This document shows positions 42,561 to 53,216 of a stretch of DNA of 64,000 bases, piece by piece (position 1 is the stretch's first letter; each line of letters opens with the position of its first letter). This stretch comes from Alphaproteobacteria bacterium. GTDB lineage: Bacteria > Pseudomonadota > Alphaproteobacteria > SP197. Under the pieces are notes generated by a model. That model was given only the letters and a program-made list of their open reading frames with translations. It ran no database searches and was not told where the DNA came from. The DNA is taken from positions 3,040,001-3,104,000 of the forward strand of contig OZ219747.1 of assembly GCA_964291265.2 (NCBI GenBank), read 5' to 3'. The position numbers were made by a program, and so were the translations under genes.

Positions 42561-43811
42561 ATGGCCGGTCGTGTTCCCGTTTGCCGACTCCGGCGCTTCC
42601 TGGCCGGCCTCGTGCTCTGCCTTCTTGCGAGTGTGACGGGTGCCGAAGCCGCCAAGGACACGACCTACTTCGTGATCGATGCCACCAACGGCAACGTGCT
42701 CGCCCAGCGCAAGCCGGACAAGGAGATGTACCCGGCCTCGCTCACCAAGATGATGACGCTCTATCTCATGTTCGAGGCACTCGAGAAGGGCACCATCACG
42801 CCCGGGACCCGGTTCACCTTCTCACGCAAGGCGAGCAATCAGGTACCGTCGAAACTCGGCATTCCCAGAGGTGGTTCGATCTCCGCCGAGGACGCCATCC
42901 TGGCCCTCGTCATCAAGTCGGCCAACGATGTTGCCGTGGCGGTCGCCGAGGGACTTGGCGGCACCGAGGAGGGGTTCACGTCCATGATGACGAAGAAGGC
43001 CCGTGAACTCGGCATGCGGCGCACGGTCTTCACCAACGCGTCGGGCCTGCATCGCCGGAGCATGATGTCGACAGCCCGTGACATGGCGGTGCTGTCCCTG
43101 CGCCTGCAGTTCGATTTTCCGGAGTACTACCCGCTCTTCTCCACCCGGTCGTTCACCTATGGCGACAGGACCTACGGGAGTCACAACAAGCTTCTGGGCA
43201 AGGTCGACGGCGTTGACGGCCTCAAGACCGGATACACCAGCGCGGCGGGGTGGAATCTGGCGGCGTCGGCCATCGTTGACGGCAGGCGCATCGTCGGAGT
43301 CGTGATCGGGGGCAAGGACCGACTTTCCCGGGACCGGCTCATGACGGACCTGATCCGGAGAGCCTTCGTGACGGCGGCTTCCGTCGACAGGGTCGTGCCC
43401 GTTCCATCGTCGCATCCACGGCGCGACGTGGCGGCGCGGTTCAGCGCCGCGCTCGACAGTGGCCGCGAGGATGACGCGCTTGTCGCGACCCTGGAGGAGA
43501 CGCTCGGGCTGGGTTCGCAAGATGTCGCCCTCGATGAGGGAAGCGCCGGCGATGATCGCAGGTGGGCCATTCAGGTAGGCGCCTTTTCCCGGCGCGACAA
43601 TGCAGTTCGCGCCAGCGTCGACACCGGCCGGGTCCTCGCGCCCTTGCTGGCTGACGACAGCGAGACCGTCCTGGCGACCGTCGAGACGGATGGGACCACG
43701 CTCTACAGGGTGCGCATTCTCAATCTCGGCGAGGGCCAGGCGCGGCAGAGCTGCCGCATTCTCAACCGCCATGATCGTCCCTGCTCGGTGATCTACGAGG
43801 GCGACTCCTGA
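42561..43811 (+). CDS. D-alanyl-D-alanine carboxypeptidase with C-terminal SPOR domain
   Basis: Signal peptide, SLTK, SAND, KTG; WAIQVGAF...LYRVR. Confidence 0.93.
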   Translation: MAGRVPVCRLRRFLAGLVLCLLASVTGAEAAKDTTYFVIDATNGNVLAQRKPDKEMYPASLTKMMTLYLMFEALEKGTITPGTRFTFSRKASNQVPSKLGIPRGGSISAEDAILALVIKSANDVAVAVAEGLGGTEEGFTSMMTKKARELGMRRTVFTNASGLHRRSMMSTARDMAVLSLRLQFDFPEYYPLFSTRSFTYGDRTYGSHNKLLGKVDGVDGLKTGYTSAAGWNLAASAIVDGRRIVGVVIGGKDRLSRDRLMTDLIRRAFVTAASVDRVVPVPSSHPRRDVAARFSAALDSGREDDALVATLEETLGLGSQDVALDEGSAGDDRRWAIQVGAFSRRDNAVRASVDTGRVLAPLLADDSETVLATVETDGTTLYRVRILNLGEGQARQSCRILNRHDRPCSVIYEGDS

Positions 43812-45405: not shown

Positions 45406-45942
45406 ATGGCGAATGCCAGGACAACCGGCGAGACATCGCAGGTCGCGGGTGTGGATGAGGTGATCGAGACCGGGTTCAGGGTCTCGGAGGACGTCGTGAA
45501 GGGCAACACCGATGCCACCAGGAAGGGTTTCGAGACCATGGTCACCATGGGTCGTGATGCGTTCGACAGCGCCGCCCGGACAGGTGGCGACGACACCGTT
45601 CTCGGACAGATCAACGACATGCGGCGCGCCAACTTCGAAGCGATGGTGGAAGCCGGCGCCACGTTCATCAAGGGTGTCGAGGGATTCAACGGCCGCGTCC
45701 TCGAGATCGCCAGGAGGCGGGTTGCCGAAGGCGCCGAGACCCGCAAGGCGCTCGCCGGTGCGAAGTCGTTCGGCGAAGCGGTCGAGATCCAGCAAGGTTA
45801 CGTGCGCAAGACCCTTGACCATGCCATTCAGGACAGCATGGACATGACGACTGCCTGGCTGCGCATCGCTGCCGAGAGCGGCCAGCCGCTCGGCCAGCGG
45901 TTCACCGATGCCTGGAGCCGGGCTGTTCGCCAGACTGCCTGA
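45406..45942 (+). CDS. phaP: Phasin family protein
   Basis: RANFEAMVEAG...KALAGAKSFGEAVEIQQGYVR; GGAG RBS; position upstream of clpS-clpA. Confidence 0.85.
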   Translation: MANARTTGETSQVAGVDEVIETGFRVSEDVVKGNTDATRKGFETMVTMGRDAFDSAARTGGDDTVLGQINDMRRANFEAMVEAGATFIKGVEGFNGRVLEIARRRVAEGAETRKALAGAKSFGEAVEIQQGYVRKTLDHAIQDSMDMTTAWLRIAAESGQPLGQRFTDAWSRAVRQTA

Positions 45943-46489
45943 TTGAGCGTTCCTTTCGAACAGCGCCCCCGCAGGGTCATGAAGACCCGGCGGGAGTGTT
46001 GGCGTTCGGAAACAGGCCGGGCGGGCGGCGAGGCCTTCGAGGACGCCCGATTCCCGTGCAGGGCACGGGCTGCGATGTTCGCACTCCCCTCAGTCCATTC
46101 GAATCCACGAACGCATCGGTGGTCCTGCCGGCAGCCATCGGAATGGCGGCTGGGAGAAGAGCGCGCGTCTCCGGTAGTCTGCGAGGATTCCAGAAATCTG
46201 CCGCTCCGGTCAGCACGCACCGGATGAGTAAGCGTTCGGCCGTGCGGTGACGGCCGATTTTGGTTGGTTTTGGGATTTGCTGACAACCGTCTGAGAAAGT
46301 GCTGGCAAGCATCCTCAACCGGTGAATATCACCAACAATCATCGCGCGACCGACCGCTTACCCCGAAGCCCTATTGGCAGGAAAGGACGCCCGGGAGACC
46401 TCAAGCACGATGACCTGCAAGCGTGCGGTCTTGCCCCGGTTTTCGCTCGGCATTCTCTCAGGCGCCGTCATCCCCTCATGAGCGAACGC

Positions 46490-46876
46490 TTACCGCTGCC
46501 TGGGCCTGGCGGCCAGCACATCATCAAGACTTGGGGCGGCCAGCACCGCCTCCGCCCAGGCTTCCAGTTCGGCGGACGAGGCGTTGCGGACCCGCTCGCG
46601 GACCGCATCCGGCACATCACCGAAGCGCAAGGACAGTTGACGAAGAAGAAGTTCCGCGAGGGCCTCGCTCCGGCCTCGTTCGAGTCCCCTCTGGAGTCCC
46701 CTCTCGATACCCTCGGCTCGTCCTCTCTCGATACCCTCGGCTCTTCCCCTCTCGATACCCTCGGCTCTTCCTCTCTCGATACCCTCGGCTCTTCCCCTCT
46801 CGAGTCCCTCGGCTCTTCCCCTCTCGAGTCCCTCGGATCTTCCCTGTTCGACCCAGGTTTGTGCGATCGTGCCCAT
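46490..46876 (-). CDS. Putative internal in-frame small protein (RpnS-like antitoxin) of copy 1, 128 aa
   Basis: GGAGG-TGTTG-ATG GGC ACG inside the rpn ORF. Equivalent ORFs at 48107-48517, 49749-50051 and 51285-51575. Confidence 0.65.
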   Translation of the reverse strand: MGTIAQTWVEQGRSEGLERGRAEGLERGRAEGIERGRAEGIERGRAEGIERGRAEGIERGLQRGLERGRSEALAELLLRQLSLRFGDVPDAVRERVRNASSAELEAWAEAVLAAPSLDDVLAARPRQR

Positions 46877-47671
46877 CAACACCTCCCAATGGTCCGGCTT
46901 CGTCCGGCGCAAAGACGCCTCCAGCATGGCCGGCGTCAGGCCCTTGTGCTCGGTCATGTAGCGCACAATATGGTGCTCGAAGTCGCTCCCTGCAAGCAGC
47001 CCGTCCATGATCACGTCGAGAAGATCGGGCGGTACCTCCTCGGCAAAGGCAAACCTGAGCGCCAGAAGAGCGGACCGCACCTCGGGCGAGGTCGACGGCC
47101 GGTCCGGCGCCATCTCCCCGAGGTCGTGCACCACATAGGCGAACTCCCTGACGAACGACTTCAGCTTCTCGGGCGCGTCGATCATCTTCAGCACCGAGCG
47201 CGCCGCCTTCCAGCGCCCCCGGCCGTGATAGAAGACCAGGGGGATGATCGCCGGCAGCTTGATGTCGTTCCCGCCGCCCTCGCTCTTGCTCCGCTCGCTC
47301 TTGCTCCGCTCGATCTCGCGCCGCCAGATGTTGACCATGTATCCCAGAAGCTGGAGCGGCGTCTCGGCGTCGACGTAGCTCTTGTGTTCGAGCAGCACGT
47401 AAAGGCGCGCATCTTTGCCGTCCTTCAATCTCACCCGGAACAGCGCATCGCACTGGGTGGTACGGGCGGCCTTGTCGACGAAACTCTCCCCAACCGCCTC
47501 GAACGGCGCCTCGGGATCGAGGAGTTCAGCCACCTTCCGCGGCAGGTAGTCGGTGAGCAGAGAAGCGGCACGGGACGGTTCGGAGACCAGTGCCCGGAAC
47601 AGCGTATCGTGTCGATTCACCGGAAGTCTCACCGAGCGAGACCCCGGCGTTTCAACGGGCATCGTGCTCAC
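46490..47671 (-). CDS. Rpn/YhgA-family PD-(D/E)XK nuclease, copy 1 (DUF4351-like C-terminus)
   Basis: HDTLF, SFVD, CDALF, YVLLEHKS, LPAIIPLVFYHG, LMGTIAQTW, (GRAEGIER)n, LLRQLSLRFG...LEAWAE. Exact start uncertain. Confidence 0.92.
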   Translation of the reverse strand: MSTMPVETPGSRSVRLPVNRHDTLFRALVSEPSRAASLLTDYLPRKVAELLDPEAPFEAVGESFVDKAARTTQCDALFRVRLKDGKDARLYVLLEHKSYVDAETPLQLLGYMVNIWRREIERSKSERSKSEGGGNDIKLPAIIPLVFYHGRGRWKAARSVLKMIDAPEKLKSFVREFAYVVHDLGEMAPDRPSTSPEVRSALLALRFAFAEEVPPDLLDVIMDGLLAGSDFEHHIVRYMTEHKGLTPAMLEASLRRTKPDHWEVLMGTIAQTWVEQGRSEGLERGRAEGLERGRAEGIERGRAEGIERGRAEGIERGRAEGIERGLQRGLERGRSEALAELLLRQLSLRFGDVPDAVRERVRNASSAELEAWAEAVLAAPSLDDVLAARPRQR

Positions 47672-48106
47672 GGGTTGGAAGGGGGAAGGTGTTCGTCATG
47701 GCGGCACCCTACGCCGAACAGCACCAAGGCGGCAATCGCGGCGCCTGACCCGGGGTGAGGCCTGCCAGGCGTCAAGACCTCGATGGCGCTTGTTCCTCAG
47801 GTCGCCGCCATGCCCGTACTTCACTCGGGTGGCCTCAGCCCAAGCTATGGCCCCTCCCTATGCTGGGTTGTGGAACTGATAGAAGACCAGTGATCACCCG
47901 CGATTTTGGCAACAAACTTCAAGGTCACCAACCCGCCCTCGTCCCCGCCTTCGATACCTCAAGACCGCTTCGCTGCCTGCCGAAGCCATAGTGGCAGGAA
48001 AGGACGCCCGGGAGACCTCATGCACGATGACCTGCAAGCGTCCGGTCTTGCCCCGGTTTTCGCTCGGCATTCTCCCAAGCGCTGTCATCCCCTCATGAGC
48101 GAACGC

Positions 48107-49313
48107 TTACCGCTGCCTGGGCCTGGCGGCCAGCACATCATCAAGACTTGGGGCAGCCAGCACCGCCTCCGCCCAGGCCTCCAGTTCGGCGGCCGACGCG
48201 CCGCGCACCCGCTCGCGGACCGCATCCGGCACATCACCGAAGCGCAGGGACAGTTGACGAAGAAGAAGTTCCGCGAGGGCCTCGCTCCGGCCTCGTTCGA
48301 GTCCCCTCTGGAGTCCCCTCTCGAGTCCCTCGGCTCTTCCTCTCTCGATCCCTTCGGCTCTTCCTCTCTCGATACCCTCGGCTCTTCCTCTCTCGATACC
48401 CTCGGCTCTTCCTCTCTCGATACCCTCGGCTCTTCCTCTCTCGATACCCTCGGCTCTTCCCCTCTCGATACCCTCGGCTCTTCCCTGTTCGACCCAGGTT
48501 TGTGCGATCGTGCCCATCAACACCTCCCAATGGTCCGGCTTCGTCCGGCGCAGTGACGCCTCCAGCATGGCCGGCGTCAGGCCCTTGTGCTCGGTCATGT
48601 AGCGCACAATATGGTGCTCGAAGTCGCTCCCTGCAAGCAGCCCGTCCATGATCACGTCGAGAAGATCGGGCGGTACCTCCTCGGCAAAGGCAAACCTGAG
48701 CGCCAGAAGAGCGGACCGCACCTCGGGCGAGGTCGACGGCCGGTCCGGCGCCATCTCCCCGAGGTCGTGCACCACATAGGCGAACTCCCTGACGAACGAC
48801 TTCAGCTTCTCGGGCGCGTCGATCATCTTCAGCACCGAGCGCGCCGCCTTCCAGCGACCCCGGCCGTGATAGAAGACCAGGGGGATGATCGCCGGCAGCT
48901 TGATGTCGTTCCCGCCGCCCTCGCTCTTGCTCCGCTCGCTCTTGCTCCGCTCGATCTCGCGCCGCCAGATGTTGACCATGTATCCCAGAAGCTGGAGCGG
49001 CGTCTCGGCGTCGACGTAGCTCTTGTGTTCGAGCAGCACGTAGAGGCTTAGCATCTTGGCCGTCCTTCAATCTCACCCGGAACAGCGCATCGCACTGGGT
49101 GGTACGGGCGGCCTTGTCGACGAAACTCTCCCCAACCGCCTCGAACGGCGCCTCGGGATCGAGGAGTTCAGCCACCTTCCGCGGCAGGTAGTCGGTGAGC
49201 AGAGAAGCGGCACGGGACGGTTCGGAGACCAGTGCCCGGAACAGCGTATCGTGTCGATTCACCGGAAGTCTCACCGAGCGAGACCCCGGCGTTTCAACGG
49301 GCATCGTGCTCAC
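48107..49313 (-). pseudogene. Rpn-family nuclease copy 2, frameshifted; C-terminal small ORF intact
   Basis: At ~49048 'GGCTTAGCATCTTGG' replaces 'GGCGCGCATCTTTG' (+1 nt), splitting the gene just before YVLLEHKS. Confidence 0.88.
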
Positions 49314-49748
49314 GGGTTGGAAGGGGGAAGGTGTTCGTCATGGCGGCACCCTACGCCGAACAGCACCAAGGCGGCAATCGCGGCGCCTGACCCGGGGTGA
49401 GGCCTGCCAGGCGTCAAGACCTCGATGGCGCTTGTTCCTCAGGTCGCCGCCATGCCCGTACTTCACTCGGGTGGCCTCAGCCCAAGCTATGGCCCCTCCC
49501 TATGCTGGGTTGTGGAACTGATAGAAGACCAGTGATCACCCGCGATTTTGGCAACAAACTTCAAGGTCACCAACCCGCCCTCGTCCCCGCCTTCGATACC
49601 TCAAGACCGCTTCGCTGCCTGCCGAAGCCATAGTGGCAGGAAAGGACGCCCGGGAGACCTCATGCACGATGACCTGCAAGCGTCCGATCTTGCCCCGGTT
49701 TTCGCTCGGCACTCTCTCAGGCGCCGTCATCCCCTCATGAGCGAACGC

Positions 49749-50846
49749 TTACCGTTGCCTGGGCCTGGCGGCCAGTACATCATCAAGACTTGGGGCGGCC
49801 AGCACCGCCTCCGCCCAGGCTTCCAGTTCGGCGGCCGACGCGCCGCGCACCCGCTCGCGGACCGCATCCGGCACATCACCGAAGCGCAGGGACAGTTGAC
49901 GAAGAAGAAGTTCCGCGAGGGCCTCGCTCCGGCCTCGTTCGAGTCCCCTCTCGATACCCTCGGCTCTTCCTCTCTCGATACCCTCGGCTCTTCCCCTCTC
50001 GATACCCTCGGCTCTTCCCTGTTCGACCCAGGTTTGTGCGATCGTGCCCATCAACACCTCCCAATGGTCCGGCTTCGTCCGGCGCAAAGACGCCTCCAGC
50101 ATGGCCGGCGTCAGGCCCTTGTGCTCGGTCATATAGCGCACAATATGATGCTCGAAGTCGCTCCCTGCAAGCAGCCCGTCCATGATCACGTCGAGAAGAT
50201 CGGGCGGTACCTCCTCGGCAAAGGCAAACCTGAGCGCCAGAAGAGCGGACCGCACCTCGGGCGAGGTCGACGGCCGGTCCGGCGCCATCACCCCGAGGTC
50301 GTGCACCACATAGGCGAACTCCCTGACGAACGACTTCAGCTTCTCGGGCGCGTCGATCATCTTCAGCACCGAGCGCGCCGCCTTCCAGCGACCCCGGCCG
50401 TGATAGAAGACCAGGGGGATGATCGCCGGCAGCTTGATGTCGTTCCCGCCGCCCTCGCTCTTGCTCCGCTCGCTCTTGCTCCGCTCGATCTCGCGCCGCC
50501 AGATGTTGACCATGTATCCCAGAAGCTGGAGCGGCGTCTCGGCGTCGACCTGGCTCTTATGTTCGAGCAGCACGTAGAGGCGCGCATCTTTGCCGTCCTT
50601 CAATCTCACCCGGAACAGCGCATCGCACTGGGTGGTACGGGCGGCCTTGTCGACGAAACTCTCCCCAACCGCCTCGAACGGCGCCTCGGGATCGAGGAGT
50701 TCAGCCACCTTCCGCGGCAGGTAGTCGGTGAGCAGAGAAGCGGCACGGGACGGTTCGGAGACCAGTGCCCGGAACAGCGTATCGTGTCGATTCACCGGAA
50801 GTCTCACCGAGCGAGACCCCGGCGTTACAACGGGCATCGTGCTCAC
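49749..50846 (-). CDS. Rpn-family nuclease copy 3
   Basis: Near-identical to copy 1; 3 octapeptide repeats; EHKSQ variant. Confidence 0.92.
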   Translation of the reverse strand: MSTMPVVTPGSRSVRLPVNRHDTLFRALVSEPSRAASLLTDYLPRKVAELLDPEAPFEAVGESFVDKAARTTQCDALFRVRLKDGKDARLYVLLEHKSQVDAETPLQLLGYMVNIWRREIERSKSERSKSEGGGNDIKLPAIIPLVFYHGRGRWKAARSVLKMIDAPEKLKSFVREFAYVVHDLGVMAPDRPSTSPEVRSALLALRFAFAEEVPPDLLDVIMDGLLAGSDFEHHIVRYMTEHKGLTPAMLEASLRRTKPDHWEVLMGTIAQTWVEQGRAEGIERGRAEGIERGRAEGIERGLERGRSEALAELLLRQLSLRFGDVPDAVRERVRGASAAELEAWAEAVLAAPSLDDVLAARPRQR

Positions 50847-51284
50847 GGGCTGGAAGAGGGAAGGTGTTCGTCATGGCGGCACCCTACGCCGAACAGCACC
50901 AGGGCGGCAATCGCGGCGCCTGACCCGGGGTGAGGCCTGCCAGGCGTCAAGACCTCGATGGCGCTTGTTCCTCAGGTCGCCGCCATGCCCCCGTACTTCA
51001 CTCGGGTGGCCTCAGCCCAAGCTATGGCCCCTCCCTATGCTGGGTTGTGGAACTGATAGAAGACCAGTGATCACCCGCGATTTTGGCAACAAACTTCAAG
51101 GTCACCAACCCGCCCTCGTCCCCGCCTTCGATACCTCCAAGACCGCTTCGCTGCCTGCCGAAGCCGTATTGGCAGGAAAGGACACCCGGGAGACATCATG
51201 CACGATGACCTGCAAGCGTCCGGTCTTGCCCCGGTTTTCGCTCGGCATTCTCCCAAGCGCTGTCATCCCCTCATGAGCGAACGC

Positions 51285-52355
51285 TTACCGCTGCCTGGGC
51301 CTGGCGGCCAGCACATCATCAAGACTTGGGGCAGCCAGCACCGCCTCCGCCCAGGCCTCCAGTTCGGCGGCCGACGCGCCGCGCACCCGCTCGCGGACCG
51401 CATCCGGCACATCACCGAAGCGCAGGGACAGTTGACGAAGAAGAAGTTCCGCGAGGGCCTCGCTCCGGCCTCGTTCGAGTCCCCTCTGGAGTCCCCTCTC
51501 GAGTCCCTCGGCTCTTCCCCTCTCGATACCCTCGGCTCTTCCCTGTTCGACCCAGGTTTGTGCGATCGTGCCCATCAACACCTCCCAATGGTCCGGCTTC
51601 GTCCGGCGCAAAGACGCCTCCAGCATGGCCGGCGTCAGGCCCTTGTGCTCGGTCATGTAGCGCACAATATGGTGCTCGAAGTCGCTCCCTGCAAGCAGCC
51701 CGTCCATGATCACGTCGAGAAGATCGGGCGGTACCTCCTCGGCAAAGGCAAACCTGAGCGCCAGAAGAGCGGACCGCACCTCGGGCGAGGTCGACGGCCG
51801 GTCCGGCGCCATCTCCCCGAGGTCGTGCACCACATAGGCGAACTCCCTGACGAACGACTTCAGCTTCTCGGGCGCGTCGATCATCTTCAGCACCGAGCGC
51901 GCCGCCTTCCAGCGACCCCGGCCGTGATAGAAGACCAGGGGGATGATCGCCGGCAGCTTGATGTCGTTCCCGCCGCCCTCGCTCTTGCTCCGCTCGATCT
52001 CGCGCCGCCAGATGTTGACCATGTATCCCAGGAGCTGGAGCGGCGTCTCGGCGTCGACGTAGCTCTTATGTTCGAGCAGCACGTAGAGGCGCGCATCTTT
52101 GCCGTCCTTCAATCTCACCCGGAACAGCGCATCGCACTGGGTGGTACGGGCGGCCTTGTCGACGAAACTGCCCTCGACCGCCTCCGGCTGCGCCTTGGGG
52201 TCGAGGAGGTCAGCCACCTTCCGCGGCAGGTAGTCGGTGAGCAGAGAAGCGGCACGGGACGGTTCGGAGACCAGTGCCCGGAACAGCGCATCGTGCCGAT
52301 TCACCGGAAGTCTCACCGAGCGAGACCCCGGCGTTTCAACGGGCATCGCGCTCAC
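51285..52355 (-). CDS. Rpn-family nuclease copy 4
   Basis: Near-identical; 2 octapeptide repeats; distinct DPKAQPEAVEGS patch; one fewer SKSER unit. Confidence 0.92.
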   Translation of the reverse strand: MSAMPVETPGSRSVRLPVNRHDALFRALVSEPSRAASLLTDYLPRKVADLLDPKAQPEAVEGSFVDKAARTTQCDALFRVRLKDGKDARLYVLLEHKSYVDAETPLQLLGYMVNIWRREIERSKSEGGGNDIKLPAIIPLVFYHGRGRWKAARSVLKMIDAPEKLKSFVREFAYVVHDLGEMAPDRPSTSPEVRSALLALRFAFAEEVPPDLLDVIMDGLLAGSDFEHHIVRYMTEHKGLTPAMLEASLRRTKPDHWEVLMGTIAQTWVEQGRAEGIERGRAEGLERGLQRGLERGRSEALAELLLRQLSLRFGDVPDAVRERVRGASAAELEAWAEAVLAAPSLDDVLAARPRQR

Positions 52356-52889
52356 GGGTTGGAAGAGGGAAGGTGTTCGTCATGGCGGCACCCTACGCCG
52401 AACAGCACCAAGGCGACAATCGCGGCGCCTGACCCGGAGTGAGGCCTGCCGGGCGTCAAGACCTCGATGGCGCTTGTTCCTCAGGTCGCCGCCATGCCCC
52501 CGTACTTCACTCGGGTGGCCTCAGCCCAAGCTATGGCCCCTCCCTATGCTGTGTTGTGGAACTGATAGGAGACCAGTGATCACCCGCGATTTTGGCAACA
52601 AACTTCAAGGTCACCAACCCGCCCCCGCCTTCGATACCTCAAGACCGCTTCGCTGCCTGCCGAAGCCGTATTGGCAGGAAAGGACGCCCGGGAGACCTCA
52701 TGCACGATGACCTGCAAGCGTCCGGTCTTGCCCCGGCATTCGCTCGGCACTCTCCCAGGCGCCGTCATCCCCTCATGAGCGAACGCTTACCCGGATGACG
52801 GCGGTGAACAGCGACCGGCGTCTGGCCTGTTGTCTGCATTGCGGGTATGATCGATTCTCCAGACTTCGTCATGCGTCCGATGGTGCCAC

Positions 52890-53216
52890 ATGAGTGACGA
52901 CAATCGCCGGAACAGTGATGGCAGCGGGACCGGTGTCGCGACCCGGGTTCGGCAGAAGACGCGGAAGCCCTCCATGTACAAGGTGCTTCTGCTCAACGAC
53001 GACTACACGCCGATGGAGTTTGTCGTTCACGTGCTGGTCAGGTTCTTCCACAAGGGCCCCGAGGAAGCGGCTCGAGTCATGCTTCACGTGCACCGTCATG
53101 GTGTCGGCCTGTGCGGCGTCTATCCCTTCGATGTCGCCGAGAGCAAGGTGACGCAGGTCATCGACTTTGCGCGGCTCCACGAACACCCCCTGCAGGCCAC
53201 GCTCGAAAAGGAATGA
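52890..53216 (+). CDS. clpS: ATP-dependent Clp protease adaptor
   Basis: [31 protein letters not shown]. Confidence 0.98.

Follow-up and report, generated by a model that had tools for sequence, protein, structure and literature searches.

The rpn genes (Rpn/YhgA) are toxin-antitoxin (TA) genes that give a product RpnL and, from an internal start with a strong ribosome-binding site, a product RpnS; they combine domains PF04754 and PF14261, contain variable four-residue repeats (tetrads), and form tandem arrays without duplications between the units (PMC10400941, PMC5350276). They are described as having no flanking repeats or duplications, as forming arrays by tandem duplication and as probably hitchhiking (Zhong et al., 2023, PMC10400941; Koonin, PMC10400984). 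Three kinds of mobile element are also relevant. Insertion sequences (IS) of the single-ORF (open reading frame) ISBst12 group of IS66 have GTAA-type ends, an 8-bp duplication and one PF03050 ORF (PMC12898284). The tIS66 transporters, such as ISPa75-fosZ, use IS66 ends (GTAAGCGT...) to carry a passenger to many targets and retain their own transposase (PMC12888890). In class 1 integrons and IR148-mcr-5 bounded by MITEs (miniature inverted-repeat transposable elements), cargo lies between non-autonomous ends and the transposase acts in trans (PMC10969869). Here we describe an array of four rpn units within an IS66-ended element in genome G000. It lies in a 64,000-nucleotide stretch (the window, G000:C2:3040001-3104000); coordinates below 64,000 are window positions, and C1 and C2 are contigs of G000. 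We consider it likely, with a probability of roughly 0.8, that the element is a transposase-free rpn cassette moved in trans by a resident single-ORF IS66, and that its array arose by homologous recombination between internal repeats.

The genes in the window share the two domains, a predicted internal start with a strong ribosome-binding site, the variable tetrads and the tandem arrangement without duplications between units. Unlike the rpn genes of Zhong et al., around which neither inverted repeats nor target duplications were found, they lie between defined ends and have exact duplications at six sites. The ends and duplication resemble those of the ISBst12 group, but the cassette has no transposase, which also separates it from tIS66, and its ends come from two sources, the left from the resident helper IS and the right from a MITE. 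The layout is that of the MITE-flanked cassettes of PMC10969869. In contrast to those, the cargo is a predicted anti-phage TA nuclease, the MITE gives the gene its stop codon, and internal direct repeats permit tandem amplification inside the element. MITE cassettes moved in trans and tIS66 passengers were already known; to these the locus adds a defined hitchhiking vehicle for rpn. It is a concrete case of the 'hitchhiking' foreseen by Zhong et al. (2023). No IS66- or MITE-bounded rpn was described in the literature searched, which covered few subscription papers, with ISfinder outside its scope.

An IS66-ended rpn cassette and its probable helper

The element is 6,563 bp long and is bounded by an exact 8-bp sequence, CCGGATGA, at 46220-46227 and 52791-52798. 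Inward-facing GTAAGCGTTCG begins at 46228 (+) and 52790 (-), and the terminal 23-nt arms are 78% complementary. Two random 8-mers from G000 match exactly with a probability of 7.5e-5, and genome-wide a duplication with at most one mismatch surrounds 40 of 194 end pairs, against 0.24 expected by chance. Thus, the duplication in the window is not a chance match. The element consists of a deleted IS66 and a repeat, followed four times by an rpn unit and another repeat. The rpn genes are all on the minus strand, and the units are spaced at 1617, 1642, 1536 and 1502 bp. The features are as follows:

46220..46227, +, left target-site duplication CCGGATGA, from the sequence; present in one copy at the empty site of G001 and G016
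46228..46361, +, internally deleted resident IS66 of 134 bp, left end (~81 bp) plus right end (~53 bp), from BLAST and comparison with the IS at C2:927480-929703
46363..46493, +, 131-bp repeat 1 of 5: ~55-bp spacer plus shortened IS66-type MITE (~46417-46493); its end is intact, and the TAA in that end serves as rpn stop
46490..47671, -, intact rpn copy 1 with a GTG start, 393 aa, PF04754 (4e-41) and PF14261; predicted RpnS start 46876 (128 aa, 15 tetrads)
47790..47935, -, decayed left end of an IS5-like element with the start of its gene, found in all units upstream of rpn; 71-77% identity to nine other genomic sites
47980..48110, +, 131-bp repeat 2, internal IS66-type end
48107..49313, -, rpn copy 2, with a frameshift near 49050 that precedes the E-H-K motif; intact predicted RpnS (136 aa, 17 tetrads, start 48517)
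49622..49752, +, 131-bp repeat 3, internal IS66-type end
49749..50846, -, intact rpn copy 3, 365 aa; RpnS predicted from 50051 (100 aa, 8 tetrads)
51158..51288, +, 131-bp repeat 4, internal IS66-type end
51285..52355, -, rpn copy 4, intact, 356 aa, the most divergent unit; predicted RpnS start 51575 (96 aa, 7 tetrads)
52660..52790, +, 131-bp repeat 5, whose end is the right end used in transposition
52791..52798, +, right target-site duplication CCGGATGA
45406..45942, +, flanking host gene phasin (phaP; PF09361)
52890..53216, +, flanking host gene clpS (PF02617), followed by clpA

The left 81 bp of the element are 87-91% identical to the left end of the helper IS66, and an 11-mer is common to both ends. 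Six right ends, internal or terminal, are found at 46361, 46493, 48110, 49752, 51288 and 52790. The first of these, which closes the 134-bp deleted IS66, is mutated in the window copy (GTAAGCGGTCG). The junction of this deleted IS66 was found four times in the genome, each time within an rpn cassette, and neither the 134-bp nor the 266-bp head MITE was found free elsewhere in the genome. The 131-bp segment is present after every unit, in five copies, and its final GTAAGCG provides the rpn stop; the right-end 11-mer lies at 46493, 48110, 49752 and 51288, with its TAA as the stop codon of each rpn. Copies of rpn that lack the shortened MITE terminate in ...CAC TGA. A search of the element by tblastn with the resident IS66 transposase found no such gene, and the internal ORFs scanned had Pfam matches to Rpn domains only. 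There were no Rfam families in the window, and a promoter scan gave one weak site and none serving rpn. The decayed IS5-like piece, so labelled from the reading of a neighbouring ORF, is a possible source of the rpn promoter. A further decayed IS66-type end lies at window position 43680, ~2.5 kb to the left of the element.

Cassettes carrying rpn with exact 8-bp duplications occupy six sites in G000, with six different 8-mers. Besides the window element, the cassettes are three dispersed single-unit siblings, E1 to E3, which together with the four array units make up the seven young copies, and two older cassettes; a seventh site has an imperfect duplication:

C1:38865-40833, E1, single rpn unit, duplication GGATCATC
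C2:64403-66252, E2, single rpn unit, duplication TGCGCCAG
C2:1597656-1601907, E3, single rpn unit with a different IS nested inside, duplication GACGGACC
C2:3000318-3002132, older rpn cassette, ~88% identical, IS66-type ends, duplication TGCGGGAC
C2:3017695-3020824, older rpn cassette, ~88% identical, IS66-type ends, duplication CCTTTCCG
C2:1938854-1944117, older rpn cassette, the seventh, 6 of 8 duplication bases matching

There are 19 rpn-like loci in G000 in all, and the older cassettes at C2:1901801 and C2:3581632 had no partner end with a duplication within 30 kb. The 40 duplication-bounded elements comprise 20 with the helper transposase, 10 MITEs (115-127 bp), 6 with rpn and 4 with other cargo. 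Gene capture by these ends is thus general in G000, with rpn as the commonest cargo (six of ten cargo cassettes). One of the four has cargo without Pfam matches; the other three are:

C1:217609-219144 (L112:288-1508), Mrr-type restriction endonuclease (PF04471), a second defence-like cargo, exact duplication CCGGCGGG
C2:3323751-3329400 (L114), 1785-aa fibronectin type III repeat protein, duplication with one mismatch
C2:3544634-3549609 (L115), RTX calcium-binding repeat protein and adjoining PF21804 transposase, exact duplication

The helper IS66, at C2:927480-929703, has a single 594-aa ORF (PF03050, 1.7e-48). With a single ORF, imperfect ends and an 8-bp duplication, it agrees with the description of the ISBst12 group (PMC12898284). 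There are 22 copies at >85% identity, two of them uninterrupted, and 20 copies are bounded by 8-bp duplications of the same type. G000 contains the end 11-mer 116 times, against no more than three times in 30 of 32 other genomes of the family, so the expansion is a lineage-specific burst. Many helper copies (e.g. G000:C2:1876928-1879810 and L059:3578-3802) are interrupted at about codon 58 by a 660-bp insert that starts with GTGTG and matches the group II intron family RF02005; among the 22 helper matches, 12 begin only at residue 59. As the intron-bearing copies have 8-bp duplications of their own, either their movement was in trans or splicing of the short intron restores the transposase.

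We aligned the phaP-clpS loci of 11 relatives. An empty site with a single CCGGATGA is present in the congeners G001 and G016. G013 carries CCGGAAGA at this position, G004 and G011 have a short deletion covering the site, and the six other loci are too diverged or partial. For E2, a precise empty site is present in three of the five congeners searched. Read contigs came from four runs of one study, X1 to X4; X1 may be the source sample, and the coverage of X4 was too thin for use. Contigs of X1 bridge both outer junctions of the window element. Those of X2 and X3 extend 27-30 letters into the window's ends, where 31 were required for a bridge call. One X3 contig unites the E2 flanks without the cassette, with 63 other letters in between and flanks that are ~1.5% diverged.

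These results bear out part of what the initial annotation had claimed for the locus or proposed to look for: inverted IS66-type ends with an exact duplication, no transposase inside, a non-autonomous IS66-derived cassette with further copies at different 8-mers, and a precise empty site between phaP and clpS. Two points stood in part. A matching autonomous IS66 with the same left end does exist, but it is of the single-ORF type and not tnpABC. The four rpn units are present, but the frameshift in unit 2 leaves three intact genes, not four. The annotation had also missed the internal right ends and the mosaic nature of the units.

Could Rpn mobilise itself, as an autonomous transposon that uses IS66-like ends? 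Rpn is the sole intact gene inside the element, the family is annotated as a putative or ISNCY transposase (the NCBIfam Rpn models, including this annotation, matched here below their curated cut-offs), and RpnA increases RecA-independent recombination (PMC5350276). However, the left end is the resident IS66's own, and the same 8-bp duplications surround 20 IS66 copies and 10 MITEs that contain no gene. In addition, E1 and E3 lie at separate sites despite a common frameshift that destroys the nuclease, and the rpn genes in the 17 congener stretches examined lack such ends. We regard self-mobilization as very improbable.

Origin of the four-unit array

The array units are 97.1-98.1% identical to one another and 97.0-98.5% identical to E1-E3. 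No target duplications were found between them. After exclusion of the repeat region and of gapped columns, a single tree cannot accommodate 178 of the 276 pairs of informative sites. A minimum of 12 recombination events is implied, and conflict is rarer between near than between distant sites (permutation p = 0.015). Because the element has internal direct repeats, no duplications between units, and mosaic units, recombination most likely built the four-gene array. This agrees with the tandem duplication that Zhong et al. describe and does not support the initial annotation, which had the array amplified by transposition. The simplest reading is recombination at the repeats with gene conversion; in-place duplication and circle accretion would give an indistinguishable outcome.

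In the accretion model, dispersed cassettes would release unit circles through recombination of their two 131-bp repeats, and the circles would enter the window site serially. This is suggested by the finding that the array units resemble the dispersed copies at least as closely as they resemble one another, and by unit 2, whose frameshift is also that of E1 and E3 and which clusters with these two (support 80/89); unit 4 is an outlier. On the other hand, duplication followed by gene conversion yields the same mosaic, and at least 12 recombination events blur the ancestry. No circle was present among the contigs examined, which could hardly reveal one. We consider accretion possible, but do not favour it.

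It could also be argued that the element has a single unit and that the array was created by the assembly, as no contig of the four runs spans it. This is hard to reconcile with units that differ by 2-3%, have private alleles, and contain four different repeat counts, or with the X1 contigs at both outer junctions. The depth of unit pieces relative to the flank is ~6-7x in X1 and 2-3x in X3, rough values that are not copy numbers; that of X1 hints at agreement with seven units genome-wide. An artefact is therefore highly unlikely. The preferred reading remains recombination between repeats within the cassette, although arrays do not require a cassette, since rpn tandems without IS66-type ends are found in G041, a distant alphaproteobacterium.

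Predicted Rpn products

The three intact array products match PF04754 (141-147 bits, gathering cut-off 21) and PF14261. Six residues (D19, D72, E92, H93, K94 and Q104) are invariant in 27 homologues. The catalytic residues of RpnA are D11, D63, E82, Q84 and R94 (PMC5350276). When mapped by spacing, with RpnA not aligned, D19, D72 and E92 match in their spacing, and K94 and Q104 stand at the places of Q84 and R94; the basic residue and the glutamine thus seem to be swapped relative to RpnA. The AlphaFold model of copy 4 is a confident one, with a pLDDT (predicted local distance difference test score) of 86.8. Its best fold matches are restriction-type nucleases, but at E >= 0.03. A sequence search of the PDB gave no match at E <= 1, and PADLOC matched no defence model.

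A predicted internal start is a consistent feature. GGGAGG is found 5-8 nt upstream of an internal ATG-GGC-ACG in all 13 near-full-length copies examined, from which translation of RpnS is predicted; in copy 1, GGGAGGTG precedes the internal ATG, and the predicted RpnS matches PF14261. A complete intact frame is found in eight of these 13 copies. By analogy with E. coli Rpn, intact copies would yield a toxic PD-(D/E)XK nuclease and an internally started antitoxin, and frameshifted copies the antitoxin only; toxicity and phage defence are predictions on the same basis. The tetrad counts of the seven young copies, which are >=97% identical, are 15, 17, 8, 7, 22, 12 and 8. In RpnC, one extra tetrad abolishes neutralization (Zhong et al., 2023, PMC10400941). 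The young copies are a natural panel for asking whether repeat number sets TA specificity. A second variable repeat, of 15 bp (ERSKS / RSEIG), lies within the nuclease domain (47280-47310 in the window, and equivalents), and its number also differs among copies.

Several results weigh against our reading. The right end used by the cassette is that of the MITE family and not the helper's own; we infer shared recognition by the helper from the common 11-mer and 8-bp duplications. The flanks of E1 and E3 are not conserved in the five congeners searched, which precludes an empty-site comparison. The order of the units rests on the assembly because short-read contigs cannot span the 131-bp repeat. 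For the nuclease, Foldseek gave no match at E <= 0.001, and the motif here is E-H-K where RpnA has E-x-Q, while the RpnA-Q84K mutant is inactive (PMC5350276). Last, three of the seven young copies are frameshifted, unit 2 sharing an identical break with E1 and E3, and the ratio of non-synonymous to synonymous substitution rates (dN/dS) against older copies is 0.47-0.67; selection is thus moderate.

The last point raises the question of whether the rpn genes are inert passengers of an IS66/MITE burst in an insertion-rich genome, with the mobility described above and no role in defence or addiction. The broken young copies, the PADLOC result and the four cassettes with other cargo between the same ends are all consistent with this. 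Yet dN/dS among intact young copies is 0.19-0.49, and across all 28 pairs compared it is below 1 (small counts, simple method), and the frame and the RpnS start are maintained in the proportions given above. Moreover, rpn predominates among the cargo cassettes, and none of the four deleted IS66 copies of 134 bp is without rpn. We therefore think that inert passengers are unlikely. A broader and tentative idea is that the locus is a self-diversifying TA bank. IS66 ends would disperse the genes, repeats would stack them, and slippage would vary the antitoxin length, giving many mutually insulated RpnL/RpnS pairs with frameshifted copies as spare antitoxins; a MITE-flanked cassette would also have crossed between distant alphaproteobacteria. 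This is possible, but we would not yet count on it.

A proposed route and rpn loci in other genomes

The ends, duplications, siblings, empty sites, helper IS66 and mosaic units are observed; on this basis we propose the following model for the cassette, in which it moves in trans and amplifies by recombination. First, an rpn gene would acquire direct copies of an IS66-type MITE on both sides. Second, a resident IS66 would insert alongside; an internal deletion would then remove its transposase, and the left end that remained could pair with the MITE end beyond rpn. Third, the helper transposase would copy this cassette to at least four sites. Fourth, the array at the window site would grow to four units, either by unequal crossover or by a unit circle re-integrating at the 131-bp repeats, and gene conversion would later mix them. 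Last, slippage in the 12-bp repeats would give each copy its own tetrad count. As the vehicle is named here to the base, with its helper, siblings and empty sites, mobilization in trans is directly testable.

This mechanism of expansion is local to one lineage. Matches to rpn are present in 8 of 22 congeners, at ~56% identity or less over the full length. IS66-type ends were found around rpn in none of 17 congener stretches examined, and they flank it in one of 21 further loci, with an end profile that was derived from G000 ends and would overlook other IS families; a metagenome scan gave one partial locus. Because these ends are absent from the majority of rpn loci elsewhere and hold other cargo as well in G000, the cassette explains the rpn expansion of one lineage and not, as the initial annotation had suggested, that of the Rpn family.

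The single flanked locus is L075 (OZ219791.1) in G041. Here two direct IS66-type MITEs, their outer ends intact, enclose rpn, and no duplication is present. Over ~1.7 kb the DNA of this locus is 77-80% identical to the older cassettes of G000, and the ClpS of G041 is 61% identical. In a DNA tree built from 20 nuclease regions (rooted at the midpoint, no test of clades, partial copies excluded), L075 joins the full set of 13 G000 copies (support 100/100) and is separate from the other G041 copies. Horizontal transfer of a MITE-flanked rpn between the lineages of G000 and G041 is therefore likely. The inner flanks of L075, GATTGAAG and GATCGAAG, resemble a single MITE target that was copied in a tandem duplication; this points to a way in which the MITE-rpn-MITE layout may have arisen.

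G041 also contains rpn tandems of three copies (G041:C2:1147893-1151968) and two copies (2739557-2742284). Its rpn copies share only a promoter-length region and the stop, with no defined ends in common, and at one tandem junction an end-like motif, CCGAACGCTTAC, lies upstream of rpn. In G009 (C2:713000-750000, L043-L045), about nine rpn copies or pieces are clustered within 37 kb, with rearranged repeats and without IS66-type ends. Finally, L089 (OZ220487.1), an rpn from Candidatus Binatia, is 78% identical in DNA to the alphaproteobacterial L090 and groups with G041 copies, which suggests a transfer across phyla.

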